The notes beneath the pieces were generated by a model. It did no database searches and had not been told where the DNA came from. It saw only the letters and a program-made list of their open reading frames with translations. This document shows positions 19,528 to 37,736 of a DNA stretch of 46,040 nucleotides, piece after piece. Source of the DNA: Halobacteriota archaeon (lineage in GTDB: Archaea > Halobacteriota > Syntropharchaeia > DAOWMC01); assembly GCA_034189535.1 (NCBI GenBank), contig JAXHUQ010000002.1, forward strand, positions 1-46,040, written 5' to 3'. The position numbers and the translations under genes are program-made. Position 1 is the stretch's first letter, and the number at the start of each line of letters is the position of its first letter.

Positions 19528-20194
19528 TATAACTCAAGGGGGGATTGGTTAGTATAGATTACCCACAAGATGGTATTTTTAGATTTTGAATTGTGCGAGG
19601 AAGATAAATATTTTTGGTAGTGTCCTAATATAAATACCTTAATATGGTAGCCTCATTACAGTTTCCATAAACGTGATAAATACCATCCCTTGTGATTATT
19701 CTGTCACCGGGACTCTAGGCACTGATTGCATCTTTGATCTATGTATAGTAACCAAGAACAATTATAGTTAGACCATCAACCTGCAGTGGTGCAATAAGAG
19801 ACAATTTTAACAAAGCAAGAGATGTGGCAAAGAGATCCCAATGGGACTTATCTAAAAATCTCCAGAAGCTGCCTTCTGTTTATATCAATAAATCCCCATG
19901 ATTACCTTGACTTTCCAGTACAAGTTGCCAAATTGCAAGAACAATCCAATATATAAGGGAGTTACGGCCGAAAACAATATATATGTGTTCACTACACCTA
20001 ACCAATATGGGCGTATATATACGTGATATGTCCTACCGATCTGAATTTAATCAGAAGGTGTAATGGGATGAAAGGAAGAATTTTTCCTGTTAAATTCCGC
20101 ATTGATGAAACTTGTGATTAAGATGAGATACAACTAGAATCTACTGATTAACAACCATATTATTCTTTTGTGAAGGGGACGGAGATGAACGACG

Positions 20195-20632
20195 ATGCTA
20201 TCAAGACCGATTGATGTTCTGCTGGTGGAAGATAATCCCGGTGATGTGAGGTTGACTGAAGAGGCTCTTAAAGAGGGTGTAATGCGAATAAACCTGCACG
20301 TCACAAATGACGGGGTCGAAGCAACTAAGTTTCTAAAAAAAGAGGATGAATATGCTAATGCACCTTCTCCTGATCTGATATTACTCGATCTAAACATGCC
20401 CAGGAAGGGCGGACGTGAGGTTCTCGAGGAGATAAAAGCCGATGAGAATCTTAGGCGTATACCAGTTGTAGTCCTCACAACTTCGAGAGCAGAGGAGGAC
20501 ATTAAAAAGTCTTATGACCTTCACGCTAACTGTTTCATCACAAAACCTGTAGATATGGATCAGTTCGTCGAAGTGATAAAGTTCATAGAAGGATTCTGGT
20601 TCACAGTTGTAAAATTACCCGGAGGGTACTGA
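20195..20632 (+). CDS. Stand-alone response-regulator receiver (Rcp1/phytochrome-partner-like CheY type), RR1
   Basis: [20 protein letters not shown], phospho-acceptor [40 protein letters not shown]-terminal FIEGFWFTVVKLP. No output domain. Stop overlaps the next start (TGATG). Confidence 0.9.
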   Translation: MLSRPIDVLLVEDNPGDVRLTEEALKEGVMRINLHVTNDGVEATKFLKKEDEYANAPSPDLILLDLNMPRKGGREVLEEIKADENLRRIPVVVLTTSRAEEDIKKSYDLHANCFITKPVDMDQFVEVIKFIEGFWFTVVKLPGGY

Positions 20633-23600
20633 TGACTGGTCTTGGTAACTCAAATGTGATTTTATCTGCAATAAGGGAAAAGGAAGATGATTTTTTAGAT
20701 CATGAAAGTAACTTTAAGTCACTGATAGAGAACTCTTCGGATGCGATAGTCGTAATTGGGCCCAAAGGAAAAGTGGTCTACCAAAGCCCTTCGTATGAGA
20801 AGATTTTGGGCCGCAAGAAGGAGGATCACCTGGGAGATTATGCCCATAGATACATTCATCCCATGGATCTCCCCCATATGTACAAACTATTTGGAAGACT
20901 CTTGCGTTCTCATGAAACTTTTGAGAAGATCAGGTTACGTCTGAAACATAGTGATGGGTCGTGGCACTGGATCCAGGCGACAGCAAAAAATCATCTTGAT
21001 GATCCGAAGATAAATGGGATTGTGGTCAATTTTCGAGATATAACAGATCAAAAAGAGATTGAAGAGAAGTTAAAGGATACTATCAAAAAATATTCGGCCA
21101 TCATTGATGGGGTAAGGGAAGGCGTAATTATTCTAAAAGACATGAAGGTCGAATTTGCGAGTCAGAGTGTTGAGGATATCACCGGTTACTCAACGGATGA
21201 GATAAAAAACATTGATCCGATGAAGGTTATTCTTCAAAAAGACTACAACAAAGTGGTTGAGATCTTCCGCAATATAGTGAAAGAAAGCGAAGTGATAAAA
21301 CCTCAACAATTCCAGATTTTTCACAAAGATGGGCACACACTCTCTCTTGAGCTAAGTAGTAAAAAGATCAAGAATAGGCGTGAAACGACTGATATTGTCT
21401 TTTTACGGGATCTTTCCTTAAAAGAAGAGAAGGAAAAAGTACTAAAGGATAGCGAGGAGAAGTACGCAACTCTTGTGAATATGAGCCAGGATGGGGTTCT
21501 ACTGTTACAACATGATAGAATCGTCTATGCAAATAATAGGTTCTACGATATATTGGGGATCGATAGGTCGAGTTTGGATGGAAAAAGTATCATATCTACT
21601 CTTTCGAAGAGTATGCCAGATATGCTCAGCGCAATGTCAAAAGAAGATAGAGAGATGCTTTTAAATAGGCTTTCGGACGCAAAGAAGGGAAATATCACCT
21701 CGCACTCATACCAGGTACCACTTAAAACAAGATCTGGCGAGATATGTTGGATCGAGATCTATGTAAACCCGATAAAGTATAAAGGAGAACCTGCGGAGAT
21801 TGTAGTATTCAGAGACGTTACAAAATTCAAGAATTACGAAGATAAACTGGGCAGATTAAAAGAGCACTATCGGTCTTTGATCGAGTCTTCTCCAGATATG
21901 ATAGCTCAGTTCAACGGCAGCGGTAAAATTATTATGGCTAATACCAGGATGGCTGAATTTTTAGAGGTATCACTTGAGGAGCTAATAGGTGGTGATGCTT
22001 TAAAAGTTATGCCAAAAGAGCTTTTGACACGCGCAATTGAGCTGCTTTCAACTGCTACAAAGTGTGAAAAACCGTTCTTCTTCGAGGATTATATCAAAGG
22101 TAGGTACTATCACAGTGTGATTGTGCCAGTTGATATTCCTGGTGAGAAGAGGACTTTTCAGATGATCTCTCGCGATATTACCGAGCATAAAGAGGCAGAG
22201 ATCGAGATTGAAGTTGCCAAAAAAAGGATGGAAGATATACTCGAAGGCATGATCGATGGAATCACCATCTCCGACATGCAGGCAAATATCCTATATGTAA
22301 ACAAGGCAGCAACTATGCAGACAGGGTTTCAACCTGAAGAGCTGATCGGAAAGAAGGTGATGGAAGTATACATAGGAAAAGAAGATTTTCTGAAAGCTGC
22401 CAAACATCTGAAAAAACTCTTCACAGGCGAATCTCTGAAGGCTGAAGAGTACTCGATCTTAAGAAAAAATGGACCTGCATTTCCGGCAAGTCTCAACTTT
22501 TCACTTTTAAAGGATAGTGATGGGAAGCCAGAGAATATTATTGCAGTCCATAGAGATATCACCGAACGCAAGAGTATGGAAGAGGAGCTTCACAAGAGTA
22601 AAGAGCGTTACCGCCTTGTAGCAGACAACTTGGAGGACATCGTATGGAGTATGGATATGAGCTTAAAGATCGATTACATAAGTCCTTCAGCAAAGACCAT
22701 CTACGGCTTAGATCCCGAAGAGGCGTTGGGAAAGCCGCTTATGAGCATACTATCTAAGGAATCGGCCGAATCGATGATGAATGGGATCAAACAGAATCCT
22801 GCCCTATTTAAAATAATGATGGAGATGATCTCCGGGCGCATCGATTCAGGTGAATTAAAAAATAACTCGGATGTTCTTTCAAAACCGATAGAGTACGAAT
22901 ATACACGTCAGGATGGTACAAAACTCTTCGTCGAATCTGCAATGAGCCCGATGATTGATGATGGGAATGCAGTCGGGATCTGTGGAATTACCCGCGATAT
23001 TACCGAGCGCGTGAAGGCTGAAATAAAGGTAAACGAGCTAATGAATGATCTGGAACGCAGTAACAAAGAACTGGAGCAGTTCGCATACGTTGCTTCTCAC
23101 GACCTCCAGGAACCTCTGCGTATGGTTTCAAGTTATCTTACTCTCCTCTCGCGAAGGTACAAAGGTAAGCTCGATTCCGACGCTGATGATTTTATCCATT
23201 TCGCTGTTGATGGTGCAACACGCATGCAGAGAATGATAAATGATCTTCTCACATACTCAAGAGTCGGTACGCGGGGTAAGCCATTTGAAGAAGTTGATAG
23301 TGAAACCCTTCTTAAAGACGCTCTCTCAAATCTGGAGATAAGAATCGAGGAGAGTAGTGCCATAGTCACTCATGATCCCCTTCCAACTGTGATGGCAGAT
23401 GATGTGCAATTTGTACAGTTACTTCAGAATCTCATAGGAAACTCAATCAAATATAATGATAAAGATACGCCAGAGGTTCACATTGGAGTTGAGGATAAAG
23501 ACGGAGATTGGCTATTTTCAGTAAAGGATAACGGCATCGGAATAGAACCGGAATATATCGATAGCGTCTTTGAGATATTCAGAAGGCTTCCGACCGAGAA

Positions 23601-23763
23601 GGAGTATGAAGGGAGCGGAATAGGCCTTTCTGTCTGTAAGAAGATAGTTGAGAGGCATGGGGGACGGATATGGCTTGAATCGGAGCCTGGGAGTGGGACG
23701 ACGTTTTACTTCACAGTTCCTTCATTAAAAAACGAAAAATTAGAGGTAGCAAGCGTAATGTGA
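20632..23763 (+). CDS. Soluble multi-PAS sensor histidine kinase HK1 (6 PAS/PAC modules + HisKA + HATPase_c)
   Basis: 1043 aa with no hydrophobic TM segment. Six about 120-aa modules each end in a PAC-like (F/L/T)RD(I/V)(T/S)E.K linker. H-box [20 protein letters not shown]-box [13 protein letters not shown]1 VKDNGIGI. G2 GSGIGLSVCKKIVERHGGRIW. Confidence 0.9.
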   Translation: MTGLGNSNVILSAIREKEDDFLDHESNFKSLIENSSDAIVVIGPKGKVVYQSPSYEKILGRKKEDHLGDYAHRYIHPMDLPHMYKLFGRLLRSHETFEKIRLRLKHSDGSWHWIQATAKNHLDDPKINGIVVNFRDITDQKEIEEKLKDTIKKYSAIIDGVREGVIILKDMKVEFASQSVEDITGYSTDEIKNIDPMKVILQKDYNKVVEIFRNIVKESEVIKPQQFQIFHKDGHTLSLELSSKKIKNRRETTDIVFLRDLSLKEEKEKVLKDSEEKYATLVNMSQDGVLLLQHDRIVYANNRFYDILGIDRSSLDGKSIISTLSKSMPDMLSAMSKEDREMLLNRLSDAKKGNITSHSYQVPLKTRSGEICWIEIYVNPIKYKGEPAEIVVFRDVTKFKNYEDKLGRLKEHYRSLIESSPDMIAQFNGSGKIIMANTRMAEFLEVSLEELIGGDALKVMPKELLTRAIELLSTATKCEKPFFFEDYIKGRYYHSVIVPVDIPGEKRTFQMISRDITEHKEAEIEIEVAKKRMEDILEGMIDGITISDMQANILYVNKAATMQTGFQPEELIGKKVMEVYIGKEDFLKAAKHLKKLFTGESLKAEEYSILRKNGPAFPASLNFSLLKDSDGKPENIIAVHRDITERKSMEEELHKSKERYRLVADNLEDIVWSMDMSLKIDYISPSAKTIYGLDPEEALGKPLMSILSKESAESMMNGIKQNPALFKIMMEMISGRIDSGELKNNSDVLSKPIEYEYTRQDGTKLFVESAMSPMIDDGNAVGICGITRDITERVKAEIKVNELMNDLERSNKELEQFAYVASHDLQEPLRMVSSYLTLLSRRYKGKLDSDADDFIHFAVDGATRMQRMINDLLTYSRVGTRGKPFEEVDSETLLKDALSNLEIRIEESSAIVTHDPLPTVMADDVQFVQLLQNLIGNSIKYNDKDTPEVHIGVEDKDGDWLFSVKDNGIGIEPEYIDSVFEIFRRLPTEKEYEGSGIGLSVCKKIVERHGGRIWLESEPGSGTTFYFTVPSLKNEKLEVASVM
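23056..23711 (+). repeat. Direct repeat copy 1 (kinase-core segment of HK1); 656 bp, partner at 25683..26338
   Basis: Line-by-line comparison with a constant offset of 2627 bp. 23056-23618 is identical to 25683-26245 (563 bp, no difference seen). Three mismatches follow (23619, 23625, 23643) up to 23711. Sequences 5' of 23056 are only about two-thirds identical. The track also shows identical shadow ORFs (23133..23369 = 25760..25996). Confidence 0.9.
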
Positions 23764-23792
23764 CGAAGATATAATTACACGGAGTGCAGGGG

Positions 23793-26372
23793 ATGGAAAT
23801 TTCAACATGTGAAGATTATGGTGATACCGAACTAAAAATGGTGATTCAAAGAGTAATAAAAAATCTTGATCTTGACAGTACGATACTGATTGCCACCTAC
23901 CTAAATAAAAAGATCTCATTTGTCAATGATCATTTCACCGAAGTTTTGGGATACGAAGAAGCAGAGGTTTTGGGCGAAGACTTGTCAGATCTATCATCTT
24001 TTGATGGCCGTAAGAGATTTAATAAATCTTTATTTCAGAGAAAAGATCTCAAAATGGTACTTATTTCATGGCAATGTATACCAATATTAGGTAAATCTGA
24101 TGAGAAGATCGGATTACTTCTATCAGGTATGGAAGAGACTGATAAAAAGATTTCGGATGAGCTTTACTCTAAGGTTGTAGAAAGAGCAAATGACGCCATT
24201 TTCATCATCCAGGATGGTGTCTTCAAGTTTGCAAACCAGAAGATGGCAGATTTTAGTAAATACATGGTGGAAGAACTTGTTGGAATGGACTTTCAAAAGT
24301 TGATCACACCAGAGTCCATAGATATAGTCGCTGAAAGAGTTAGAAAAAGATTAGCAGGAGAGCTTGTAGCAAATTCCTACGAGTTAGAACTCCTTGATAA
24401 AGAAGGCCATGTGCTGCCCATTGAGGTAAATGCCGGTTTGATCGATTACGAGGGTAGACCAGCAGACCTGGTCTTTTTGCGTGATATTTCTGAACGTAAG
24501 AAGATGGAGGATTCACTCAGGGAGTCCGAGCAGAAATACTCAACCGTGGTAGAGGGAAGTAATGACGGCATCATAATACTAGATAATAAGATGTGTGTTG
24601 TGTATGCCAATAAAACGATACTTGATTTGTTGGGGTATACAACTGAAGCTATAGGATCAAATGTACTTAAATACATAAAAATCGAACCCAATCGGCTAAT
24701 TAATCTAATGGGTAACTTTCGTCAACGTATGGCAGGTGAAGGTGTAACTTCAACCTTCGAAATAGATCTATTGCATAAAAATGGTAATATAATCCCTGCC
24801 GAGGTTAGTATCGCCAAAATTGATTTTAAAAGTAAACCTTCAGATGTGATTTTCATTCGTGTCATATCCGAACGAAAGCGGGCTGAAGAAGCTATAAAGG
24901 CAGAAAAAGAAAAATATCAAGACGTTGTTGAAAATATAGAGGAGGGTTTATTTACCCTTGATAGGTATGGTAAATTTATTTACCTAAATCAGGAGATGGT
25001 TGAAAATATTACCGGATATACATCAGAAGAACTTATTGGAACGCACATTTCAGCGTTAGTCTCAAAAAGGAGAAATACAGCCATATTGCCCTCATTTTTG
25101 ACGTTATTAAAAAGGAATAAAATATGTAACGTTGAAACAGAGATTAAGAAAAAAGACGGTACTTTTGTTCCGATAATTGCAACTATAACTCCCAAAATTG
25201 AAGATGGTAAAGTAACCAAGATATTTGGTGTAGTTAGAGATATATCTGAAAGAAAACATTTTGAAAAATCAATCGAAGATGCCCACAAGCAACTGAAAAA
25301 TATCTTTGATAGCGTTGATGTTGTATTGTTCTCAAATGATATTGTCAAATCTCGCATACTAGAGGTCTCACCAAGTTGCGAAAAACTCTATGGATACACT
25401 CCTGAGGAGTTCATTGAGAACCCAATGATTTGGAGAGATACGATACACCCAGATGACAGAAAATCGATTTCAGAACTTATCATCAAAATGTTTTCAGGAA
25501 AATCGCTAGGTGCAGAATACCGCATCATCCGATCTGATGGAGAGATACGGTGGGTATGTCTTAACCTAAAACCGATACTTGATAGCTCAAACAGCCTCAT
25601 ACGCGTTGATGGGGTTGTATCTGATATTACCGAACGCAAGAAGATTGAGGTAGAGAAGGGGGAACTACTTGAAGACCTTGAGCGCAGTAACAAAGAACTG
25701 GAGCAGTTCGCATACGTTGCTTCTCACGACCTCCAGGAACCTCTGCGTATGGTTTCAAGTTATCTTACTCTCCTCTCGCGAAGGTACAAAGGTAAGCTCG
25801 ATTCCGACGCTGATGATTTTATCCATTTCGCTGTTGATGGTGCAACACGCATGCAGAGAATGATAAATGATCTTCTCACATACTCAAGAGTCGGTACGCG
25901 GGGTAAGCCATTTGAAGAAGTTGATAGTGAAACCCTTCTTAAAGACGCTCTCTCAAATCTGGAGATAAGAATCGAGGAGAGTAGTGCCATAGTCACTCAT
26001 GATCCCCTTCCAACTGTGATGGCAGATGATGTGCAATTTGTACAGTTACTTCAGAATCTCATAGGAAACTCAATCAAATATAATGATAAAGATACGCCAG
26101 AGGTTCACATTGGAGTTGAGGATAAAGACGGAGATTGGCTATTTTCAGTAAAGGATAACGGCATCGGAATAGAACCGGAATATATCGATAGCGTCTTTGA
26201 GATATTCAGAAGGCTTCCGACCGAGAAGGAGTATGAAGGGAGCGGGATAGGACTTTCTGTCTGTAAGAAAATAGTTGAGAGGCATGGGGGACGGATATGG
26301 CTTGAATCGGAGCCTGGGAGTGGGACGACGTTTTACTTTACGATACCAAGGATGAGGGGGGATAGAGATTAG
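23793..26372 (+). CDS. Soluble multi-PAS sensor histidine kinase HK2 (5 PAS modules + kinase core identical to HK1)
   Basis: Track ORF 23784 (GTG). ATG at 23793 lies 8 nt after GGAG. Five PAS-like modules. From ERSNKELEQF to FYFT the protein is identical to HK1. Confidence 0.9.
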   Translation: MEISTCEDYGDTELKMVIQRVIKNLDLDSTILIATYLNKKISFVNDHFTEVLGYEEAEVLGEDLSDLSSFDGRKRFNKSLFQRKDLKMVLISWQCIPILGKSDEKIGLLLSGMEETDKKISDELYSKVVERANDAIFIIQDGVFKFANQKMADFSKYMVEELVGMDFQKLITPESIDIVAERVRKRLAGELVANSYELELLDKEGHVLPIEVNAGLIDYEGRPADLVFLRDISERKKMEDSLRESEQKYSTVVEGSNDGIIILDNKMCVVYANKTILDLLGYTTEAIGSNVLKYIKIEPNRLINLMGNFRQRMAGEGVTSTFEIDLLHKNGNIIPAEVSIAKIDFKSKPSDVIFIRVISERKRAEEAIKAEKEKYQDVVENIEEGLFTLDRYGKFIYLNQEMVENITGYTSEELIGTHISALVSKRRNTAILPSFLTLLKRNKICNVETEIKKKDGTFVPIIATITPKIEDGKVTKIFGVVRDISERKHFEKSIEDAHKQLKNIFDSVDVVLFSNDIVKSRILEVSPSCEKLYGYTPEEFIENPMIWRDTIHPDDRKSISELIIKMFSGKSLGAEYRIIRSDGEIRWVCLNLKPILDSSNSLIRVDGVVSDITERKKIEVEKGELLEDLERSNKELEQFAYVASHDLQEPLRMVSSYLTLLSRRYKGKLDSDADDFIHFAVDGATRMQRMINDLLTYSRVGTRGKPFEEVDSETLLKDALSNLEIRIEESSAIVTHDPLPTVMADDVQFVQLLQNLIGNSIKYNDKDTPEVHIGVEDKDGDWLFSVKDNGIGIEPEYIDSVFEIFRRLPTEKEYEGSGIGLSVCKKIVERHGGRIWLESEPGSGTTFYFTIPRMRGDRD
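25683..26338 (+). repeat. Direct repeat copy 2 (kinase-core segment of HK2)
   Basis: See copy 1. Same orientation, 2627 bp downstream. Confidence 0.9.
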
Positions 26373-26421
26373 GTCAAACTCTTATCATTCACTAATTTTT
26401 GTAGAAGACAAGGTAAATGAT

Positions 26422-29019
26422 TTGAAGTTGGAGTTACAAAGTGCGAAGAATTTTCTCGATTTGGCAGATTCCATCTTCGTTGCTACAGATACAGACCATA
26501 ATATTATATTTGTTAATAAAAAGACCTGTCAAGTTCTAGAACAAGCAGAAGAAGATATTATTGAGAAGAATTGGTATGATACATTCATCTCAGATGGGGC
26601 AAGAGAAGAGGTGAAGAACGATTTTCAAAACCTTTTATTGAGAAGCAGAGATGAGACACATGTCTTTGAAGAGACCATAGAAGTAGTCTATGGCATAAAG
26701 AAGTCCATATTATGGAGTCGTAAGGTAATAAAAGATGATTATGGGGTTAATATTGGAATAATAAATACAGGAGAAGAAATAACATGTCAAAAGCGTATTA
26801 ATGAAGATTTAATTGATATTAAACAAAAATATAATACTTTATTCGAAAATAAGATTGAAGGAGTCCTTATTTTTGATGCCCAAACGATGAAGATAGTATC
26901 GGTCAACCAAACCGCAGCAGAACTTTATGGATACCGAGGTAAAGAAGAAGCAATTGGGAAAAGTCCGCTTGATTTTATCCCGGAAGGAGATAGAGCTAAT
27001 GTCTTTAAAGATATCACAAATGAGCTGTTCAAAAAGAATCTGAAAAAAGTTAGAGAGTACAGGACAGTAACAACGGAAGGCCAAGAGAGATGGATCGAGG
27101 TATACGGCAGTAGGATCGAATTTGAGGGTAAATTGGCAGGTCTGGTCATATTTAAAGATATAACAGAAAAAAGGAAGATAGAAGAGGAATTACGCCGATC
27201 AAAAAAGAAATATGAAAGCATCGTAGAAGGGGCAAATGATGGCATTATTATTCTCACAGCAGATCTGAAAATTGTATACGCCAATAAAAAAGTGACTGTT
27301 CTGTTTGGTTATTCAGCTGAAGAAGCATTAAAGATCGATTTACTCAAGGCAATTTGCCCCCACTCTTTAAAAGAGGCATTGAATTTATTCAAACGCAGGA
27401 TGGTAGATGAAGATACGGCTTCAACATACAATATTGACGTATTCCATAAAGACGGTCATGTTATACCTGTCGAATTGAGTAGCGCAAAGACCGAGTATGA
27501 GGGTAAACCGGCTGATATAATTTTTATTCGCGACATTTCAGAACGCGAGCAAGGAAAAGAGGTATTTGAGGAACTAAAAGGGAGTTATCAGGCTCTTATT
27601 GAAAATTCTCCGGATATAATAGCCCAATTTGATGTAAACGGAAAAATAATCACTGCTAATACCAAAACAGCAGAATTTTTAAATTTGTCCTTGAATGAGG
27701 TGATCGGCTGCAAGATCTCTGAACTGTTACCAAAAGAGTTCATGGGAAACGCCTTTAAGCTAATATTAAATTTAATCGGAAGTGATGAACCAAGTTCATA
27801 TGAAGATTGTGTGAACGGAAGATACTATCAGATCTATTTGACACCTGTCAAGGGCTTAGGTAAGATAAGGACTTTTCAGTTTATCGCTCACGATATAACC
27901 GATAGAAAAGATGTGGAAATGGAGGTTTTGTCCGGTAAAAGGGAACTTGAGGATATAATGAACAGTATGATCGATTCGGTGTTTATCGCTTCTCATAAAG
28001 CAAAGATTATCAACGTCAATGATTCAGCCGCGTCGCTTACGGGATATGATAAAGAAGAACTGATCGGAACATTTCCCACAATGATTATTAGTAAAGATTC
28101 CATCTCATCATTCTTCTACAATCTCAAAAAATTACAGGCAGGTACCAATGTAGAATCGTTGGAACTAACAGCTAAAAGAAAAGATGGTTCAGAGGTCCCA
28201 GTCAGCGTTAATATCTCATTTACAACTGATTTTGAGGGAAAGCCGGATAAACTGGTCGTTGTTTTACGAGATGTAACTGAACGCAAAAGATATGAGAAGA
28301 GACTTAAAGAGACGCTGGAGGATTATAAAGACTCAATGGGGGAGCTTGAACAGTTCACCTTTATAGCCTCACATGACCTGCAGGAACCTCTACGCATGGT
28401 GGCAAGTTTTGTTCAACTCTTGTCGTTGCGATATAGGGGCAAATTTGATTCCGATGCTGATGAGTACATAGACTATGCCGTCGAAGGTGTAAAACGTATG
28501 AAGGGGATGGTCGATGATTTGATGGCTTTATCAAGTATCGGTACAACAAATAAATCTTTAAAACTTGTAGAGTGTGAAAAGGTCCTCGATTTGGCTATTT
28601 CCGCTCTTGATACAAAGATAAAGGATAGCGGCGCTGAGATTTTGCGTGAACCATTGCCAGTTGTAATTGGGGACAATTCTCGGCTCATTGAACTCTTCAC
28701 AAACCTATTAGATAACGCTATCAAGTATAAGGGATCAGAATCGCCGCATATTCACATATCTTCTGAAGAAAGAGAAGGTAACTGGGTCTTCTCGGTACAG
28801 GACAACGGTATTGGAATTGACCAGGAAAATGTTGAGCACATCTTTAAGATATTTAGGCGTATGGACAAGAGACGATCAGGGACCGGAATCGGACTTGCGA
28901 CATGTAAGAGGATTGTACAGCACCACGGGGGAAGAATTTGGGTAAAATCAGGGCTAGGGATAGGAACAACATTCTACTTTACAATTCCGGTAATGAAGGT
29001 TGAGAAAGATGAACGGTGA
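26422..29019 (+). CDS. Soluble multi-PAS sensor histidine kinase HK3 (5 PAS modules + HisKA + HATPase_c)
   Basis: TTG start. It is the first canonical start codon after the in-frame TGA at 26353, with AGGT 7 nt upstream. H-box [20 protein letters not shown]-box LFTNLLDNAIKY. VQDNGIGI. GTGIGLATCKRIVQHHGGRIW. Confidence 0.85.
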   Translation: MKLELQSAKNFLDLADSIFVATDTDHNIIFVNKKTCQVLEQAEEDIIEKNWYDTFISDGAREEVKNDFQNLLLRSRDETHVFEETIEVVYGIKKSILWSRKVIKDDYGVNIGIINTGEEITCQKRINEDLIDIKQKYNTLFENKIEGVLIFDAQTMKIVSVNQTAAELYGYRGKEEAIGKSPLDFIPEGDRANVFKDITNELFKKNLKKVREYRTVTTEGQERWIEVYGSRIEFEGKLAGLVIFKDITEKRKIEEELRRSKKKYESIVEGANDGIIILTADLKIVYANKKVTVLFGYSAEEALKIDLLKAICPHSLKEALNLFKRRMVDEDTASTYNIDVFHKDGHVIPVELSSAKTEYEGKPADIIFIRDISEREQGKEVFEELKGSYQALIENSPDIIAQFDVNGKIITANTKTAEFLNLSLNEVIGCKISELLPKEFMGNAFKLILNLIGSDEPSSYEDCVNGRYYQIYLTPVKGLGKIRTFQFIAHDITDRKDVEMEVLSGKRELEDIMNSMIDSVFIASHKAKIINVNDSAASLTGYDKEELIGTFPTMIISKDSISSFFYNLKKLQAGTNVESLELTAKRKDGSEVPVSVNISFTTDFEGKPDKLVVVLRDVTERKRYEKRLKETLEDYKDSMGELEQFTFIASHDLQEPLRMVASFVQLLSLRYRGKFDSDADEYIDYAVEGVKRMKGMVDDLMALSSIGTTNKSLKLVECEKVLDLAISALDTKIKDSGAEILREPLPVVIGDNSRLIELFTNLLDNAIKYKGSESPHIHISSEEREGNWVFSVQDNGIGIDQENVEHIFKIFRRMDKRRSGTGIGLATCKRIVQHHGGRIWVKSGLGIGTTFYFTIPVMKVEKDER

Positions 29020-31351
29020 TGATTGCGGGCAAGGGGACCTTATCTTAATGGGTACGGACAGCACGAATGATATCCTTATTAGGGGTTACACTCTCGCTGA
29101 AAAGTATCTCATCGATAAAGAGACGATAATTGTTGCCCTCGATTCCGATCAAAAGATACAAAATATTAACAGATATGGATTGGAATTACTTAGATATACA
29201 AGGGAAGACCTTTCTGGATGTAGTTGGTCCGATCTATCTGTTTCAGATGGGAATAGAAAAGAAGTAGAGTCTTTACTTGCTAAAATTCTAAAAGAACCAT
29301 CAGAAGAGAGTATAGCTTACAAAGACACCTTATTGACAAAGGATGGTACGACTAAGCACTTTTCATGGCGAGTTACTGTGGTTTTGGAAGATTCGGGTGA
29401 TGCGGTTGGGGCGATACTTACAGGGGGGGTTATAGGCGAGAATTTATATGATAGAGAGGGTGTGTATTCTGCCATCGTTAATGGGGGAAGTGATGGCGTA
29501 ATAATTATGAAAGATCTGAAGGTTGTCTTTGCCAATCAGAAGATAGCTGAGATCACGGGTTATGATATTGAAGAGGCTAGAGAGATAGATCTGAAAAAGA
29601 TAACACCGCCTGAGCACTATATAAAGGCTGCTTCCAGATTCATTCGGAGAATGAAAGGTGAGGATCTGCCCCAGGCCCTGGAGATGGAAATTTTTCATAA
29701 AGACGGTCATAGGATCCCCATTGAGCTTAATAACTCAAGGATAGAATATGATGGAGGACCTGCAAGTGCCATCTATATCCGGGATATATCTGATAGAAAA
29801 AAGGCAGAAGAGGATGCAAAAAAGAATGAAGAGATGTATAAATTCCTCTACGACAATAACCATGCCATAAATATAGTTATCGGGCTAGATGGGACAATTT
29901 TAGATCTTAATCCTGCTGCAGCAAGACTACTGGGGTATGATGCAAAAGAAATCTTGGGTAGACATGCTCTTGAGTTTGTCAGTCTCTCTCAGCGGAGTTC
30001 TGCTTTTTGGAATATGATAAAAATCTTGCGCGGAGATACTGTTCCAAGCATTGAGCTCGAAGTTGTTACCAAGTATGGCGACTCTACACTTCTATTTGCA
30101 GAGGGAAAAGCCGTCAGATTTGAAAAAAACGGACAACAAGGTATCATACTTAGTGGAATAGATATAACTGAGCGAAAGATAACAGAAGAAAACCTGTTAA
30201 GGAGTAAAGAGCAATATCGCCTACTTGCAGATAACCTGAAGGACGTTATCTGGAGTATGGATATGGAACTGAAGATAAATTATATCAGCCCGTCTTCCAT
30301 AGAGATGTTTGGTATAGATCCTGAAGATGCGATTGGAAAGTCGATGATGAATCTGATGCCAAAGGAATCGACTGAGTCGATGATGAGGGGTATAAAAAAG
30401 AATCCTGATTTATTAAAAACCATAATAGAGATGCTGTCTGGACTTATAAGCTCAACAGAGATTATTAAACGATCAGACCTTCTTTCAAGACCATTAGAAT
30501 ATGAATATTATTGCCCTGATGGTAAAAAAATCTACGTCAGTTCAACGATGAATCTTGTTATAAATTCGGAGGGTGAAGCTGTCGGAGTTTGTGGTATCAC
30601 AAGAGATATTACCAATCTTAAGAGATCAGAAGAAGGACTGAAAGAGGCCCTTTACAACCTAAGAAGGTCTAATCAAGAACTTGAGCAGTTGACCTATATT
30701 GCATCGCATGACCTGCAAGAGCCTCTGAGGATGGTTGCAAGTTTTGTAGGAATGCTTTCTATCCGCTACAAAGATAAACTGGATTCAGAAGCAAAAGAGT
30801 ATATAGACTACGCAATCGATGGCGTAAAACGGATGAGAGAAATGGTCGACAATCTGATGGCTTACTCGAGTGTTTTAACCAAAGGAAGTCCATTTGAACC
30901 GGTAGACTGTGATATGATACTTGATCGTTCGCTTAAAAACCTATTATTAAGTATTAATGAGTCTGAAGCGGTAATAACGTCAGAAAAGTTACCGCAATTG
31001 TGGGGAGATCCTACACAGTTAGCAGTAATATTCAGGACACTCATCGAAAATGCAATCAAGTATCGCAGTAAAGAGAGACCGATTATTATAATCTCGTCAG
31101 AGAGAGAAGATGATCACTTCATTTTTAAAATTAAAGATAACGGAATAGGAATCGAACCTAAAAACCTAGAGAAGGTCTTCGAACCTTTCAAACGCATGAA
31201 TAAGAAGAGATCCGGTACCGGAATAGGTCTTGCGATATGTGACAGGATAATTCAGCGTCATGGTGGAAGGATATGGGTAGAATCAGAGCCTGGGAAGGGT
31301 TCAACGTTTTACTTTACTATTCCGGTCAAAGGAGGGGATAAAAATGAATGA
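29009..31351 (+). CDS. Soluble multi-PAS sensor histidine kinase HK4 (4 PAS modules + HisKA + HATPase_c)
   Basis: Track start TTG 29000. ATG at 29009 (MNGDDCGQ...) follows GAAGGT and overlaps the HK3 stop (29017-29019). H-box [56 protein letters not shown]. Confidence 0.85.
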
Positions 31352-31787
31352 AGAACGGTTAAAACCAATTGAGATACTCCTTGTGGAGGATAATCCTGGA
31401 GACGTAAGGTTGACCCAAGAAGCCTTCAAGGAAGGTAAGATAAAGAACAATCTGTATGTAGCAAAAGACGGTGTTGAAGCGATAGAATTTCTAAGGCATC
31501 AGGGTGAGTATTCCGATTCGCCTCGTCCTGACCTGATTCTACTGGATCTGAATATGCCAAGAAAGAGTGGTAAAGAGGTTCTTGAAGAGGTCAAGGCTGA
31601 TGAGGGGCTAAGGCGCATCCCTGTTGTAATCCTCACAACTTCCAAAGCAGAAGAGGATATATTCAGATCATACGATCTACATGCAAACTGTTTCATAACA
31701 AAACCAGTGGATATGGATCAGTTTATTGATGTTGTAAAGTTTATTGAGAGCTTCTGGTTCACTGTTGTGAGGTTACCGACAAGATGA
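31344..31787 (+). CDS. Stand-alone response-regulator receiver RR2 (Rcp1-like)
   Basis: [79 protein letters not shown]. Overlaps the HK4 stop by 8 nt and the HK5 start by 4 nt (ATGA). Confidence 0.9.
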
Positions 31788-34510
31788 CTGGTAAGAAGAT
31801 TGAGTCCGCAGGTTCTCTTCTGTTACTAAAAGAGCCTGAAGATAGCAGACAAAAAGATGAGTGGAGTGCAGCAGAGAGATATCTTGATTTTACAAAAGAG
31901 ATTATTGTTGCAATCGATCTTGATGAGAAGATTACTCATATCAACAGAGCAGGGTGTGAGACCTTAGGCATTCGAAGAGAGGAGATTTTTGGTGAGAACT
32001 GGTTTGAGATGTTCGTCCCGGAAAATTTAAGAGAAGATGCAAGATCTTACTTCAGAAGGTTGATCTTTGAAGATGGATATCATTCGGAACATTTTGAGTC
32101 TTATGCCATCGGAAGTGAGAGTCATGAAAAGATAATTTCATGGCACATCGCTGCCTTTGCAGATGAATCCGGTAATACAATAGGTGTACTTGGATCAGGG
32201 GAGGATATCACCGAACTAGTGGTAATGAAGGGTGAGTTGTCACAACAGATGGCGTATACGAAAGGAATTCTCGATAATGCACCCGATATGATACTGGTCC
32301 TTGATAGGAGATGGAAGATAACCTATGCAAACAACACTCTCGCAAAATTTGCGGGAATGAAAACAAATGAAGTTGTCGGTAAGGAATTGATGAGTGTTGT
32401 AAAGGAAGCGGGAATTCTGAACAGTAAATCGGTCAAAATATTGTCTGCACGTATGAAAGAGTGGCTTCAGACGGGAAAACCAATATCTGACGTTGAGTTA
32501 GACGCAATTGACAAAAATGGTGAAGAATTTTCCTTCAGCTACTCAACATCTGTTATCAAGGGTGAAGATGGGGACGTCATCGGAGAGTTCGTAATAATTC
32601 GTGATATCACTGAATCAAAGAAGGTAAAAGAGGTGATAGAAGAGAGTGAAGAAAAATACTCTTCACTTGTTGAACTTAGCCCGGATGCTATTATGATGAT
32701 CAGTGAAGCAAAAATCGTCTTCTGCAACAGCCAATATTACAAGATGCTCGGCATTGAAGATTATGATGTAGTTGGAAAGAGTGTCTTTGAACTTCTCAAT
32801 GGGATAATGAAAGATTCACTTGCCGTTTTAACAAAAGATGAAAGGCAAAAGATCGTAAAAAACCTTAAAGATGCAGCCAGAGGTGTCGTTGAACCACGTA
32901 GATATCAGATACCTGCAAGGAGATCCACAGGCGAGATGATATGGGTCGAAATATATGTTACTCCGATCACCTACAAAAAGAAGACTGCAGAGATGATCCT
33001 TGTGCGAGATATCACTGAGAGCAAAAGAGCTGAAGAGATCACCAAGATTGAGCATCAGAAATATCAGGAGGTTGTCGAAAACATCGATGAAGGGCTATTT
33101 AATATGGATCTGAAAGGTAGGGTCAGACTCATCAACCCGAAGATAGCCGAAAAGGTGACCGGGTATGACATGGATGAGATTGAAGGAAAATCCCTTACAA
33201 TGCTTGCACCAAAAGAAGAGATGCCTGCCGCTATATCTGTCATCCAAAAGGTCCTTGGTGGGAATAAGATTCGCAACTTTGAGACGGTGCTTAAGAAGAA
33301 GGATGGTACTATTGTTCCTTTCCTCATGTCTCTTACACCCAAGATGAAGGATGGTAAAATTTACGAGATATTTGGCGTTGTAAATGATATCAGTGAGAAG
33401 AAAAACGCCGAAGAGAAAGCAAGGGTCGTACAGGAGCGGTATAAGACGGTAGTTGAAAATATCGGAGAAGGGCTATTTATACAAGATGCAACAGGAGTCA
33501 TAAATTATGTCAATCCGGAGATAGAGAATATAACTGGCTACAGCGCACGCGAACTGATCGGATCGAACTTTGCAAATCTTCTGTCAAAAGATGTTCGCAA
33601 GATTATATTACCGGGTTTCGGTAGACTCATGAAAGGAGAAACTCTGCATAATCTCGATATTAATTTTACAAGAAAAGACGGAGAAGAGATCTTTATAGAA
33701 ATTACTATAACGCCATATCTAAAGAAAGGTAAAATTACAGAGATAACAGGCGTTATTCGAGATATAACCGAGAGGAAGGAGTCAGAAGCAATTTTGAATA
33801 AGACTTTATCCGATCTCAAGCATACCAATAAAGAACTTGAGCAGTTTGCATATGTTGCCTCTCATGACTTGCAGGAGCCGCTCAGGATGGTGGGAAGCTA
33901 TGTGCAACTCATCTCACGTAGGTACAAAGGCAGGTTAGACGATGATGCCGACGAGTTTATAGAGTATGCTGTTGACGGTGCCAGGCGTATGCAGAATATG
34001 ATCAACGACTTACTCACCTATTCACGCGTTGGGACAAGGGGAAGTCCATTTAAGCAAATAAACTGCGAAGAGATCATAAGAAATGTAACTATAGATCTTT
34101 CAATACTGATTGAGGAGAATAATGCATCGATAACTCACGATCCTCTGCCTGTCGTGTGGGCCGATGAAGTACAGCTTATACAGCTATTCTCAAATCTTAT
34201 TGGAAACTCGATCAAGTATCGCCGTGAAGATAATCCAAAGGTTCATATTTCGGTTGAAAAGAGTGCTGACAATTGGTTATTTTCTGTACAGGACAACGGA
34301 ATGGGAATAGACTCGGTTTATAAAGAAAATATATTCAACGTCTTCAGTAGAATGGATAAAAGACAGTCGGGTACTGGAATTGGTCTTGCAGTATGTATGA
34401 AGATAGTTAAGCGTCATGGTGGCAATATTTGGGTCAAATCAGAATTAAATAAAGGTTCAACATTCTATTTTACAATTCCAACAAGGAGAAAATTTGATGA
34501 TGAAGAATAA
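31784..34510 (+). CDS. Soluble multi-PAS sensor histidine kinase HK5 (5 PAS modules + HisKA + HATPase_c)
   Basis: 908 aa with no TM segment. H-box [60 protein letters not shown]. Confidence 0.9.
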
Positions 34511-34943
34511 CATAGATGAAGCTGTTGAAATACTACTTGTGGAAGATAACCCTGGCGATGTAAGATTGACGCAGGAAGCGTTCAAAGAAGGCAAGATAAA
34601 GAATAATTTACATGTAGTCGGGGATGGTATTGAAGCTTTAGAATTTTTAAGGAATGAAGGCGAGTATGCGGATGCTCCTCGTCCCGATCTTGTGCTACTC
34701 GATCTGAATATGCCGAGGAAGGGAGGTAGAGAGGTTCTTGAAGAGATGAAGGCAGATGACGATCTTAAAGGCATCCCTGTTGTGATTCTCACTACATCAG
34801 AAGCAGAGCAGGATATACTCAGATCATATGATATGCAGGCAAACTGTTACATAACAAAACCGGTAGATGTGATGCAGTTCTTCCAGATCATTCACTACAT
34901 CGAGGATTTCTGGTTTACTATTGTGAAGTTGCCGGGAGGTTGA
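34494..34943 (+). CDS. Stand-alone response-regulator receiver RR3 (Rcp1-like)
   Basis: [78 protein letters not shown]. Overlaps the HK5 3' end by 17 nt. The next gene starts 1 nt after its stop. Confidence 0.9.
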
Positions 34944-34944
34944 G

Positions 34945-36570
34945 ATGACTAAGACTAAAAATACAACGGTCCTACTGGTAGAAGACAACCCAGGGGACGC
35001 ACGTCTTATAAAAGAGATGCTAAAATTCAGCAGCACCACAAGATTCGAGCTCACACAAGTTGAGAGTCTAAAAGATGCAATCGAGGTTCTTGAAGAGGAG
35101 TCTTTTGACATTATCCTCTCGGATCTCGGGCTCCCTGACAGCTGGGGACTTGATACCTTCAACAAATTACACATTCATGTGCCGAGGGTCCCAACCATTG
35201 TGCTGACCGGGCTAAACGATGATGTCACCGGTACAAGGGCGGTGCGCGAAGGTGCACAGGATTACCTCATAAAAGGACAGGTGGATGGGGATATTCTGTC
35301 AAGGGCCATCCATTATGCCATAGAGCGAAAGAAGAGTGATGAAGCATTAAGAGAGAGCGAAGAGAAGTACTCTGCACTTGTAGAGTTGAGCCCTGATGGA
35401 ATAGTTCTATTGCAAGCTGGCAAGGTGATATTTGCAAATAATAGCATATATAGACTCTTTGATATTGATGAATCAGATTTAATCGGTGGAGATATTTTTA
35501 AACTGATGAATGGTTCATTAAAAGATGCTATGGATGTATTGAATGGCCAGGAGAGGAGTTTAATAATAAATAACCTATCAGAAGCTGCAAGAGGAAATAT
35601 AACGGCCAGAACATACCGATTACCTTCAAAGAGGAAGTCAGGAGATATAATCTGGATTGAGGTCCATGTCACTCCGATCATGTACAAGGGAATAACTTCA
35701 GAGCTGATCCTCTTCAAGGACATCACAGAACAAAAGGAAGCCGAACAATCAATTAAGGAGAAGAATAAGGAGTTACAGGTGATGGGAGAAGAGCTACAAG
35801 AACTCAACCTTAATCTTGAAAACAAGGTAAAAGAGAGGACGATAGAGGTTGAAAATCTTCTGAAACAGAAGGATGAATTTGTTAATCAGCTCGGGCATGA
35901 CCTTAAAAGCCCACTTACACCCCTTGTAACGCTCTTGCCCATAATTGAAGAAAGAGAGAAAGATTCTGAACTTAAAGAACTACTCGGAATAAGTATCGAG
36001 AATGTCAATTTCATGAAGGAGCTTGTTATAAAGACACTCTCACTTGCGAGGTTGAATGCGCCAAATACAAAGTTCAATATAGATGAAGTAAAGCTCTCAA
36101 AAGAGGTTAAAACGATCTTTTACACCAAACAACAGATATTCATTGAGAGAGGTATATCGACAGAAAATAAGGTTCCAGAGGGACTGATTGTAAGAGCGGA
36201 TAAGTTGAGGCTCGATGAGTTATTTGACAACTTGATAACAAACGCAATCAAGTATAGCAACGAAGGCGGTTCTATAACGATAGATGCGGAAGATAATGGT
36301 GATTTCGTTAAAGTTTCAATCAAAGATACCGGCGTTGGTATGGCCGAAGAGCAGTTGAGCCATATCTTTGAAGAGTTCTACAAGGTAGACCCATCAAGAC
36401 ACGATCTTGATTCTTCCGGTCTCGGACTTTCGATATGTAAACGCATTGTCGAGAAGCACGGTGGAAAGATATGGGCTGAAAGCCCCGGAGAAGGTAAGGG
36501 CACAACATTCTACTTCACGATCCCTGCTCTAAGAGTGGAAGAGGAGGAGATGTTAGTTCTTGCTTATTAA
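34945..36570 (+). CDS. Hybrid REC-PAS-histidine kinase HK6 (N-terminal receiver, 1 PAS, coiled coil, different HisKA type, HATPase_c)
   Basis: Receiver: [42 protein letters not shown] related to HK1 module 3 and HK5 module 3. H-box FVNQLGHDLKSPLTPL (EnvZ-like, unlike the SHDLQEPL cores upstream). N-box LFDNLITNAIKY. IKDTGVGM. SSGLGLSICKRIVEKHGGKIW. Confidence 0.9.
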   Translation: MTKTKNTTVLLVEDNPGDARLIKEMLKFSSTTRFELTQVESLKDAIEVLEEESFDIILSDLGLPDSWGLDTFNKLHIHVPRVPTIVLTGLNDDVTGTRAVREGAQDYLIKGQVDGDILSRAIHYAIERKKSDEALRESEEKYSALVELSPDGIVLLQAGKVIFANNSIYRLFDIDESDLIGGDIFKLMNGSLKDAMDVLNGQERSLIINNLSEAARGNITARTYRLPSKRKSGDIIWIEVHVTPIMYKGITSELILFKDITEQKEAEQSIKEKNKELQVMGEELQELNLNLENKVKERTIEVENLLKQKDEFVNQLGHDLKSPLTPLVTLLPIIEEREKDSELKELLGISIENVNFMKELVIKTLSLARLNAPNTKFNIDEVKLSKEVKTIFYTKQQIFIERGISTENKVPEGLIVRADKLRLDELFDNLITNAIKYSNEGGSITIDAEDNGDFVKVSIKDTGVGMAEEQLSHIFEEFYKVDPSRHDLDSSGLGLSICKRIVEKHGGKIWAESPGEGKGTTFYFTIPALRVEEEEMLVLAY

Positions 36571-36576
36571 GATGTG

Positions 36577-36582
36577 TTTTTT
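36577..36582 (+). terminator. T6 tract after the last kinase gene; candidate oligo-T terminator
   Basis: gtgTTTTTTa read 7 nt after the HK6 stop. It is the only T-run of 6 or more at any gene junction of the nine-gene array. Confidence 0.3.
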
Positions 36583-36620
36583 ATCAAACCATTTATCATC
36601 TCGTTTCTCATACTCCCTTT

Positions 36621-37736
36621 ATGCTTTCAAACTTTGATGATATCAATATAAAAGAGCTCTCTGAGATTTACGATTCTGAAAACAAGGATACATTCATTAC
36701 TCTTTTTTTAAATATAGAAAGTTACGATGACAAATTCCTTGAAAAAAGGAAAAAATCCTGTATATCTGTTCTCAAGGGAAATAAGGATCTTCTTACCAAT
36801 TTTAACAGAACAGTAAAGATGATAGAAAGATATCTAAAAAAGATGGCGAGGGAGAAAGATCTGAAGGGACTTGCACTCTTTGCATCTCACAAGAACAACT
36901 TTTTCAGGGCGTATAAATTGAGAATCCCACTTGAGGATATGATGGTTGTAGACACATCACCATACGTCAGACCCCTGGTACGATTGATCGACGAGTATGA
37001 ATCATTCGGACTTGTTCTTCTTGATAGTCACAGGGCGGAAATCTATGTAGTCTCTTCAGGCAAAATCGAGGTTGAGGGAGAAAGGGTTAGCGATATCATG
37101 AACAAGCACAAGAAAGGGGGATGGTCGCAGGCCCGTTTTCAGAGATTAAGAGAGGGTGCGATAGATCATTTTTTAAAGGGAGTCGTAGAAGATGTGGAAA
37201 AGATCTCCAGTGATGAAGAGATTAAGAGGATAGTTATAGCCGGTTCGGGTAACGCGAAGAAGACGTTTGTTGATATGATCCCAGCTGGTATTAAATCGAA
37301 TGTTATTGATGTTATTGACGTCGAGTTTGACCAAGCAGAGGGTAGACTCATCTCAAAGGCAGAAAAAATTGTCTTCGAGGATGAGAAGAAGAGAAGTGAT
37401 GGGAATATTGAGAAATTAAGAGAAGAGATCCTAAAAGATGGGCTTGGTGTCCATGGCCTAAAAGAGACGTTAGATGCAGTTGAAAATGGCCAAGTGGATA
37501 CGCTTCTTGTAAGAAAAGGTCTCAAGGTCAGGGGATGGATATGTGAGAAGTGCCAGTCTGTAGGTCAGGGACATGTGAAAATTTGTCCGAACTGCGAGAG
37601 TGAAACTTCAGAAGCTGACATGATCGAGGAGATCATTGAGTTCGCCGAGAGAAAAGAGACTGTAATTGATTTCGTGGAAGGTAATCAGATGCTTGAGAAA
37701 CTCGGAGGAATAGGTGGACTCTTGAGGTATAGATAA
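36621..37736 (+). CDS. eRF1/Pelota-superfamily protein of the Vms1/ANKZF1-like (VLRF1/baeRF1) type with C-terminal zinc ribbon
   Basis: 371 aa. MNKHKKGGWSQARFQRLRE (nt 37116-37130 = GGWSQ) aligns with the aRF1/eRF1 loop KHGRGGQSALRFARLR but carries G-x-x-Q instead of GGQ. Downstream IVIAGSGNAKK and GQVDTLLV blocks resemble eRF1 domains 2 and 3. CEKC...CPNC (C308, C311, C322, C325) forms a zinc ribbon. Confidence 0.6.
   Translation: MLSNFDDINIKELSEIYDSENKDTFITLFLNIESYDDKFLEKRKKSCISVLKGNKDLLTNFNRTVKMIERYLKKMAREKDLKGLALFASHKNNFFRAYKLRIPLEDMMVVDTSPYVRPLVRLIDEYESFGLVLLDSHRAEIYVVSSGKIEVEGERVSDIMNKHKKGGWSQARFQRLREGAIDHFLKGVVEDVEKISSDEEIKRIVIAGSGNAKKTFVDMIPAGIKSNVIDVIDVEFDQAEGRLISKAEKIVFEDEKKRSDGNIEKLREEILKDGLGVHGLKETLDAVENGQVDTLLVRKGLKVRGWICEKCQSVGQGHVKICPNCESETSEADMIEEIIEFAERKETVIDFVEGNQMLEKLGGIGGLLRYR

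Follow-up and report, generated by a model that had tools for sequence, protein, structure and literature searches.

A nine-gene array of multi-PAS histidine kinases and Rcp1-type receivers in an uncultured Halobacteriota archaeon: a candidate expansion of a widespread three-gene signalling module

Introduction

In Rhizobium NT-26, the kinase core of BphP1 phosphorylates both the Rcp1-like protein AgR and the Asp62 residue of ExsG, a kinase carrying a receiver domain (REC-kinase), whose autokinase activity is inhibited by this phosphorylation; ExsF is phosphorylated by ExsG, not by BphP1, and the pathway was called intrinsically branched by its authors (PMC3899027). The RtBphP1-RtBRR-RtBHK operon of Ramlibacter tataouinensis has the same design, and the loss of its atypical hybrid kinase produces the same phenotype as the loss of the phytochromes (PMC6848086). 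Here, we describe an archaeal locus with a related gene order, namely a nine-gene array of six histidine kinases (HK1 to HK6) and three stand-alone receivers (RR1 to RR3) lying in a stretch of 46,040 nucleotides (nt) from a Halobacteriota archaeon (GenBank assembly GCA_034189535.1, contig JAXHUQ010000002.1), hereafter called the window, to which all positions refer.

Archaeal kinases are often cytoplasmic and contain several PAS or GAF domains, stand-alone receivers make up about 40% of the regulators, and archaeal signalling is thought to proceed through contacts between proteins instead of DNA-binding outputs (Galperin et al. 2018, PMC5847659). Methanosarcina acetivorans possesses 53 kinases for 15 regulators, 11 of which are REC-only proteins proposed to operate as hubs; most of its kinases are orphans, six or seven of them being encoded in operons with a regulator (Georgiev et al. 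2025, PMC11784639).

On balance, we favour with moderate confidence the interpretation that the array is a lineage-specific archaeal expansion of a widespread three-gene module, with convergent two-tier signalling into its last kinase, HK6.

Results

Gene content of the array

Nine + strand open reading frames (ORFs; six-frame list) occupy positions 20195-36570 in the order RR1-HK1-HK2-HK3-HK4-RR2-HK5-RR3-HK6, and encode 26 PAS modules, six kinase cores and four receivers. The original prediction, which was made from the sequence letters, had proposed these nine genes with identical coordinates, and its six kinase cores and four receivers were borne out by the location of six H-box histidines and four phospho-acceptor aspartates. 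It was right about the nine genes, but in ending the array at 36570 it left out a tenth + strand gene (36621-37736), which encodes a protein resembling the archaeal release factor aRF1; it also missed the near-identical transmitters of HK1 and HK2, the mosaic of PAS modules and the conservation of the locus in a second genome, which are all described below.

The genes either overlap, by 1 nt at RR1/HK1 (TGATG), 4 nt at RR2/HK5 (ATGA), 8 nt at HK4/RR2, 17 nt at HK5/RR3 (with the TTG start of RR3) and 11 or 20 nt at HK3/HK4 (for the HK4 starts ATG 29009 or TTG 29000), or are separated by short gaps, of 1 nt at RR3/HK6, 29 or 20 nt at HK1/HK2 (for the HK2 starts ATG 23793 or GTG 23784) and 49 nt at HK2/HK3, the largest in the array. 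All the overlaps and gaps listed earlier were reproduced, with the alternative starts of HK2 and HK4 in addition, and the sole junction run of six or more T residues was found, as claimed, after HK6, at 36577. Antisense ORFs inside the array (e.g., 35313-35825 and 24989-25357) have no family match and were rejected as spurious.

RR1 (20195-20632, + strand; 145 amino acids (aa), Asp65; Pfam Response_reg 1.4e-20), RR2 (31344-31787, + strand; 147 aa, Asp68) and RR3 (34494-34943, + strand; 149 aa, Asp70) are stand-alone receivers of the Rcp1 type (Rcp1/RcpA-type for RR1), sharing 67-72% identity with one another, and Response_reg is the single Pfam match in each of them. Their active sites are intact, with the phospho-acceptor Asp and the EDNPGD, TTS and TKP motifs. 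The resemblance to Rcp1 pointed out in the original prediction was corroborated by a PDB search in which residues 5-143 of RR1 aligned with 5te9 (3.7e-49), RcpA (1k68, 9e-44) and Rcp1 (1i3c, 4.4e-40).

The first five kinases, all soluble and encoded on the + strand, are HK1 (20632-23763; 1043 aa, six PAS, HisKA with His823, HATPase_c), HK2 (23784-26372; 862 aa from GTG 23784, the alternative start being ATG 23793; five PAS, transmitter His648), HK3 (26422-29019; 865 aa, TTG start, five PAS, transmitter His651), HK4 (29000-31351; 783 aa from TTG 29000, alternatively ATG 29009; four PAS, transmitter His570) and HK5 (31784-34510; 908 aa, five PAS, transmitter His694). The sixth, HK6 (34945-36570, + strand; 541 aa), has the organization REC (Asp60)-PAS-HisKA (His318)-HATPase_c. 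Both HisKA and HATPase_c (4e-26 to 3e-30) were found in all six kinases, with the H-box SHDLQEPL in HK1-5 and GHDLKSPL in HK6, and the N, G1 and G2 boxes were located by pattern (for example, the N box ENAIKY of HK4 and the G2 box SSGLGLS of HK6). The transmitters of HK1-5 share 49-60% mutual identity, HK1 and HK2 reaching 94%, and that of HK6, only about 28-34% identical to them, is from another subfamily. In the PDB, the HK1 transmitter matched the unnamed kinase 8f71 (6e-54) and bacteriophytochrome transmitters (about 2e-36), the matches including 8avv, a Deinococcus bacteriophytochrome solved as a fusion to its Rcp1-type regulator. Because the receivers match Rcp1/RcpA and the HK1 transmitter matches bacteriophytochromes, HK1-5 and RR1-3 appear to be the same cognate family pair as Cph1-Rcp1, without the GAF/PHY domains.

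The 26 PAS modules (6+5+5+4+5+1 in HK1 to HK6) were counted with a hidden Markov model built iteratively from the modules of the locus itself. The same total had been derived from a recurrent RD(I/V)(T/S)E.K linker; that count was correct, but the strict linker stands at about half of the boundaries, and a relaxed pattern gives 14 matches. As hints to cofactors, neither the NCRFL motif of LOV domains nor a CxxCH motif was found. The PAS regions weakly matched solved structures, namely an uncharacterised haloarchaeal PAS (3fc7, 4e-12) and the FAD-binding tandem PAS of MmoS (3ewk, 1e-7 and 3e-10; HK1 P5-P6 and HK5 P2), and we assigned no ligand because these matches are too weak.

The Pfam domains of the nine proteins are PAS-type, HisKA, HATPase_c and Response_reg, and nothing else; in agreement with the earlier description, no GAF, phytochrome (PHY), DNA-binding or enzymatic output domain was found in them by Pfam, and no membrane segment was predicted (maximal Kyte-Doolittle 19-residue mean of 1.29, for a threshold of about 1.6). 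Since cytoplasmic multi-PAS kinases and REC-only regulators are the archaeal norm, the missing membrane segments and output domains are to be expected. What had been presented as a missing output is confirmed as regards the domains, but it is unremarkable in archaea, and HK6 appears to take the output slot, as follows.

The kinase / Rcp1-type receiver / REC-output triad

Our survey covered at least 80 bacterial and archaeal loci containing Rcp1-type receivers, a large family whose members share 57-68% identity with RR1-3 among the matches listed. In 64 of 74 listed loci, the gene just upstream of the receiver on the same strand encodes a kinase, the core of which is always of the HK1 type; in 57 of 75, the gene just downstream encodes a protein with an N-terminal receiver, which in most cases resembles that of HK6. 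These receiver-first proteins comprise 33 REC-kinases and 24 others, including a few tandem Rcp1-type receivers; the remaining outputs, as read from their sequences, are GGDEF-EAL, HD-GYP, a sigma54-type ATPase with a helix-turn-helix (HTH) domain, a haloarchaeal Bat-like HTH, a ParA-like domain, another kinase type, and others. We found no general description of this triad in the literature beyond the phytochrome cases.

With its same-strand order of kinase, single-domain receiver and REC-kinase (17-nt overlap and 1-nt gap), HK5-RR3-HK6 appears to be one instance of this widespread triad, whose output is carried by the third gene. HK6 would fill this output slot, and the output here would be a second kinase.

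The kinase density of the array is high, not unique. In the 38 full-length loci around Rcp1-type receivers, one or two kinase cores usually lie within 10 kb on either side; three or more occur at 10 of these loci, five to six at individual ones (L126, L171 and L177 in our numbering), and three HK1-type cores stand in tandem ahead of the receiver at L127. It is also worth noting that, in listed loci L125-L204, the Rcp1-type receivers of very distant bacteria and archaea keep 57-68% identity and a near-invariant alpha-1 GDLEA, and that the usual next gene encodes a second receiver type with the signature LPDSxGL...GAQDYLxKG...YAIERK.

Partner-recognition residues and a proposed two-tier wiring

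At positions +7, +8, +11 and +12 from the histidine of the DHp domain, the residues are RMSY in HK1, HK2 and HK5, RMSF in HK3 and HK4, and TPTL in HK6, and the contact residues of receiver helix alpha-1 are GDLEA in RR1-3 and GDLEM in the HK6 receiver; the alpha-1 helices of RR1-3 are near-identical, and that of HK6's own receiver is close to them. These scored positions show no insulation among HK1-5 or RR1-3, and, judged from the same residues, the HK6 kinase clearly seems to address a different partner from HK1-5. The strongest single point for convergence is the transmitter shared by HK1 and HK2: because the two copies are effectively identical, both sensor arrays must address the same partners.

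We propose that, in a first tier, HK1-5 would read cytoplasmic or membrane-permeant cues through their 25 PAS modules and, because they carry the same partner-recognition residues, would phosphorylate a shared pool made of the three near-identical receivers RR1-3. By analogy with the BphP1-AgR-ExsG pathway, they would probably also phosphorylate the N-terminal receiver of HK6. In the second tier, this phosphorylated receiver would switch the HK6 kinase on or off, and HK6 would hand the integrated signal to a regulator encoded elsewhere. RR1-3 would either work through contacts with other proteins or shape the response by competing as phosphate acceptors. The branched many-to-few integrator suggested by the original prediction is favoured by the shared residues and the conserved triad, with the reservation, explained hereafter, that the residues are a family default. 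The phosphorelay suggested along with it was not upheld, as the HPt family has zero matches in the ten proteins (array and aRF1-like) and the flanking ORFs, and a two-tier kinase cascade fits better.

Several points weigh against our proposal. We presume, from the covariation in EnvZ/PhoQ and Spo0F, that DHp positions His+7, +8, +11 and +12 and the receiver alpha-1 positions are specificity sites. In the listed Rcp1-type loci, RMSY occurs in 30 of 58 kinases and GDLEA in 47 of 70 receivers; the residues being this family-wide default, we now give those shared by the DHp domains less weight as a sign of selected cross-talk. Residues beyond the scored positions could still insulate the kinase-receiver pairs. 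RR1 precedes HK1 instead of following a kinase, which is off the triad order. ExsG has an HWE-type core, whereas HK6 has a HisKA core plus a PAS; and ExsF, the substrate of ExsG, is encoded in its own cluster, whereas HK6 has no obvious substrate nearby, neither a further receiver type nor an ExsF-like substrate being encoded in the flanks of the window. Finally, the gap between HK2 and HK3 contains a run of five T residues, at 26396, where transcription could terminate in part in an archaeon.

Shuffled sensors, a conversion tract and a second genome

Pairwise identity between the 26 PAS modules has a background of 25%, from which six types of module stand out, with copies that are 40-58% identical although they lie in different kinases and at different positions: HK1 P4-P5 with HK3 P4-P5; HK1 P6 with HK4 P4 (58%); HK1 P3 with HK5 P3 and HK6 P1; HK2 P4 with HK5 P4 and P5; and HK2 P2 and P3 with HK3 P3 and HK4 P2. 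Because the same types recur in different kinases and positions, the kinases appear to be mosaics of shuffled sensor modules.

The transmitters of HK1 (23080-23679, + strand) and HK2 (25707-26306, + strand; offset of 2627 nt) differ by 3 of 600 nt. In a codon-by-codon comparison (repeat family D1), this tract begins with the DHp helix and ends with the ATPase domain, and the identity collapses on both sides, a pattern that indicates a recent, presumed gene conversion or duplication. The sensor regions of HK1 and HK2 are unrelated in order despite the near-identity of their transmitters. We propose that the array was built by tandem duplication, the shuffling of PAS modules and gene conversion, a process that would be still ongoing since the HK1 and HK2 transmitters are nearly identical. 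In a milder reading, the array may serve as a recombination nursery, where a homogenised transmitter would keep receiving new combinations of PAS cassettes.

Among species-representative genomes, the sole close relative of the locus occurs in a metagenome-assembled genome (MAG) labelled Halobacteriota archaeon, from a tar biofilm, the contig of which (L001/L285 in our numbering) allows comparison from the HK2 C-terminus onward. The comparative check suggested by the original prediction gave a positive answer there, the block HK2-HK3-HK4-RR2-HK5-RR3-HK6 being colinear in this one related MAG, where HK2 is represented by its C-terminus, at the contig end, followed by HK3. The orthologues are 81% (HK3; 857 aa, L285), 83% (HK4), 97% (RR2, L001), 82% (HK5), 83% (RR3, L001) and 86% (HK6, L001) identical to those of the array, the aRF1-like gene reaching about 82-83%. 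The PAS modules are each 69-90% identical and the cores 85-90%, the N-terminal modules being the most divergent. Since all the PAS modules are kept at 69-90% identity, they appear to be maintained, not decaying.

Between HK3 and HK4, the relative has an extra gene (L001 1311-2399, the same as L285 2780-3868) encoding a 362-aa REC-kinase with Response_reg and HATPase_c but no HisKA in Pfam, the core of which is 70% identical to that of HK3. It represents a gene gain or loss within the array.

Spacers and transcription

The spacer upstream of RR1 (19528-20194, + strand; 667 nt, 36% GC) is non-coding, with no ORF and no kinase or receiver remnant in a blastx comparison with the array proteins, and is the probable promoter region. 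A TATA-like element, TATATATA, stands at 20014, 181 nt upstream of the RR1 start; a TATA-box scan gave weak candidates at about background density (1.1 per kb). Shine-Dalgarno-like motifs precede 7 of the 9 array genes. From these motifs, the overlaps and the gaps of at most 49 nt, it is plausible that the array is one polycistronic unit starting in 19528-20194.

The spacer between HK6 and the aRF1-like gene (36571-36620, + strand; 50 nt) contains the T6 run and a duplicated TTTATCA, the second copy of which begins 29 nt before the ATG of the aRF1-like gene. Compared with the relative (L001), it is largely conserved, including the duplicated TTTATCA and excepting the first few bases; the T6 run is not conserved. 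No Shine-Dalgarno-like motif precedes the aRF1-like gene. The second TTTATCA may serve as the archaeal TATA box of a leaderless mRNA, and, because the TTTATCA spacer is conserved and a Shine-Dalgarno-like motif is lacking, the aRF1-like gene probably has its own promoter.

The adjacent aRF1-like gene

The gene located 50 nt downstream of HK6 (36621-37736, + strand) encodes a 371-aa aRF1/eRF1-like paralogue of baeRF_family10, with a loop, KHKKGGWSQARF, and a CxxC...CxxC zinc ribbon. The protein matches PF18854 (9.4e-25, 88 bits for a cut-off of 27.1) as well as eRF1_2 and eRF1_3, and Pfam gave no match to eRF1_1, the stop-codon recognition domain expected of a canonical aRF1, in its N-terminal residues 1-110 (about 110 aa). 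In the PDB it matched aRF1 (2.9e-16) and Balon (6.5e-7). It falls below the NCBIfam cut-offs for aRF1 (TIGR03676, 138 bits versus 234.7), likewise for Pelota, and for the Balon-type families MSMEG_1130, Rv2629 and AOC03_06830 (66-77 bits versus cut-offs of 320-480). A canonical aRF1 or Balon-type identity is not supported by these scores, and the protein appears to be a distinct paralogue, neither aRF1, Pelota nor Balon-type. The loss of the catalytic glutamine expected of Balon-type factors is not seen either.

The loop is of the GGxSQ form (here GGWSQ, not GGQ), which is kept with its glutamine in 43 of the 43 homologues that cover it, and baeRF_family10 was described as keeping the catalytic glutamine (Burroughs and Aravind 2019, PMC6514570). 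We had regarded the loop as a lost GGQ and the protein as catalytically dead, a view that we have withdrawn given the glutamine retained in family 10 and the GGxSQ of all 43 homologues; the protein may be an active peptidyl-tRNA hydrolase. It has no match among the PADLOC defence models.

In the relative, the aRF1-like orthologue follows HK6 after the same 50-nt gap (L001), and the similarity between the two genomes stops immediately past its stop codon; the conserved block is consequently the array together with the aRF1-like gene. Elsewhere, kinases lie near the aRF1-like homologues at 4-5 of 44 loci, and most neighbours are unrelated genes; in Thermoplasmata, the homologues are widespread and stand among other conserved neighbours. 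Conversely, no aRF1-like gene was found near the 158 other HK6-like loci. We rejected the notion that the aRF1-like gene is a family-wide partner of the kinases, given these different neighbours in Thermoplasmata and the 158 HK6-like loci that lack it.

Two observations concern homologous loci. In Thermoplasmata, two saccharopine-dehydrogenase-like genes (function judged from their sequences) usually follow the aRF1-like homologue. In a Thermoplasmatales MAG (L012, 4539-9779), a gene for a 1348-aa multi-PAS/GAF kinase stands directly upstream of the homologue on the same strand; its core is 51% identical to that of HK6, and this adjacency of a kinase and an aRF1-like gene is apparently an independent, second one.

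Host and neighbouring genes

The flanking genes are reminiscent of archaea or methanogens (Memo-like, short MGS/AICARFT, Helicase_C_3/Tfb2-type, FeMo-cofactor-domain and two-subunit-type GMP synthase), the GMP synthase subunit being at most about 75% identical to those of Methanosarcinales/Methanocellales among the species-representative genomes. As judged from these sequences, the host is an uncultured archaeon of Halobacteriota. The window contains no tRNA gene and no Rfam family.

Upstream of the array lie ordinary archaeal genes for a Helicase_C_3/Tfb2-type protein (14273-15943, + strand), which we take to be possibly a Bax1-like partner of XPB, and for a Memo-like protein (16891-17694, - strand). 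Downstream, about 300 nt of non-coding DNA (37737-38041) separate the aRF1-like gene from a convergent alpha/beta-hydrolase gene (38042-39022, - strand); a + strand ORF (37904-38278) that overlaps the latter, without family match, is probably spurious. Farther on, a low-GC island (42467-45575, + strand; 32-36% GC versus about 40% elsewhere) carries genes for a AAA+ ATPase resembling IetA (E 1.3e-96) and a subtilase resembling IetS (E 7.8e-105), which together form the two-gene Iet system of defence against phages and plasmids, in this case in the genome of an archaeon.

Discussion

The proposal of a convergent, two-tier expansion has to be weighed against the possibility, to which we give some credence though we think it rather unlikely, that the array is a genealogical cluster of parallel, insulated pathways that are neighbours by tandem duplication, each kinase having its own receiver or a distant partner, with no integration of their signals. 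The HK4-RR2 and HK5-RR3 pairs do fit the usual kinase-then-receiver order of cognates; the divergence of the cores (49-60%) and of RR1-3 (67-72%) leaves room for specificity outside the scored positions; and, most kinases of M. acetivorans being orphans (PMC11784639), distant partners are common. Such insulation is difficult to reconcile with DHp alpha-1 and receiver alpha-1 contact residues that are the same across the paralogues, and even more with the common transmitter of HK1 and HK2, which hence must share partners. Furthermore, none of HK1, HK2 and HK3 is directly followed by its own receiver, and the tight coupling and conserved order of the genes point to co-expression.

Another idea, improbable in our view, is that the array controls translation, the sensor network setting the level or activity of the GGxSQ aRF1-like protein as one functional unit, and this protein in turn acting on ribosomes during stress. 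If true, ribosome rescue, termination or hibernation would, in this archaeon, be directly coupled to the sensing of the environment or of redox state. The gene lies on the same strand, 50 nt downstream of HK6, and is conserved with its spacer in the relative, the similarity ending right after its stop codon; the unrelated Thermoplasmatales locus L012 also places a 1348-aa multi-PAS kinase with an HK6-like core next to a homologue; and the bacterial relatives Balon and Rv2629 are stress-induced ribosome factors (PMC10901736). Yet, kinases accompany 4-5 of the 44 homologues, whose neighbours are mostly unrelated, and none of the 158 other HK6-like loci has an aRF1-like gene nearby. The aRF1-like protein lacks a receiver domain, and so takes no part in His-Asp transfer; its gene probably has its own promoter; and the two linked genomes are close relatives, in which the adjacency may be simply inherited. 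We consider as very improbable that the HK1/HK2 tract is an assembly artefact, a mis-join or repeat collapse having made HK1 or HK2 chimeric. Two such similar copies of a 600-nt tract, lying 2.6 kb from each other, can indeed confuse short-read assemblers, but the copies do differ by 3 substitutions, the divergence of their flanks is gradual and keeps the reading frame, each gene is intact and ends in a proper stop codon, and the contig end of the relative, an HK2-type C-terminus followed by HK3, supports the gene order.

In archaeal two-component signalling, kinases outnumber regulators, most of which have no output domain (PMC5847659, PMC11784639). The array, as a compact and self-contained test case for the idea of many kinases converging on few REC-only hubs, illustrates this current picture and does not change it. 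It extends the bacterial kinase / Rcp1-type receiver / REC-output triad into archaea, and its PAS mosaic and fresh conversion tract offer a snapshot of how sensor diversity is generated.

Similarly to Cph1-Rcp1 of Synechocystis and CphA-RcpA/CphB-RcpB of Tolypothrix, the array has close receivers, including their C-terminal FW...LP tail, and keeps the kinase-then-receiver order in HK4-RR2 and HK5-RR3. In contrast to these systems, its kinases have no GAF/PHY, and are hence no phytochromes, and there are many kinases per receiver. Its tenth gene encodes a protein that shares with aRF1/eRF1, Pelota and Balon the eRF1 central and C-terminal domains and the zinc ribbon.

Like the archaeal repertoires described previously (PMC5847659, PMC11784639), the array has cytoplasmic multi-PAS kinases that outnumber REC-only regulators, and kinases with an N-terminal REC occur in both. 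Its less usual feature is the packing: unlike what is seen in M. acetivorans, six kinases and three receivers are contiguous. The gene order matches that of the BphP1-AgR-ExsG-ExsF system of Rhizobium NT-26 and Agrobacterium and that of the Ramlibacter operon, and the branched, two-tiered logic that we propose for the array by analogy would be that of BphP1-AgR-ExsG. The array differs from the latter in that its inputs are PAS arrays instead of a bilin-binding PAS-GAF-PHY module, its first tier comprises five kinases and three receivers, and its host is an archaeon.

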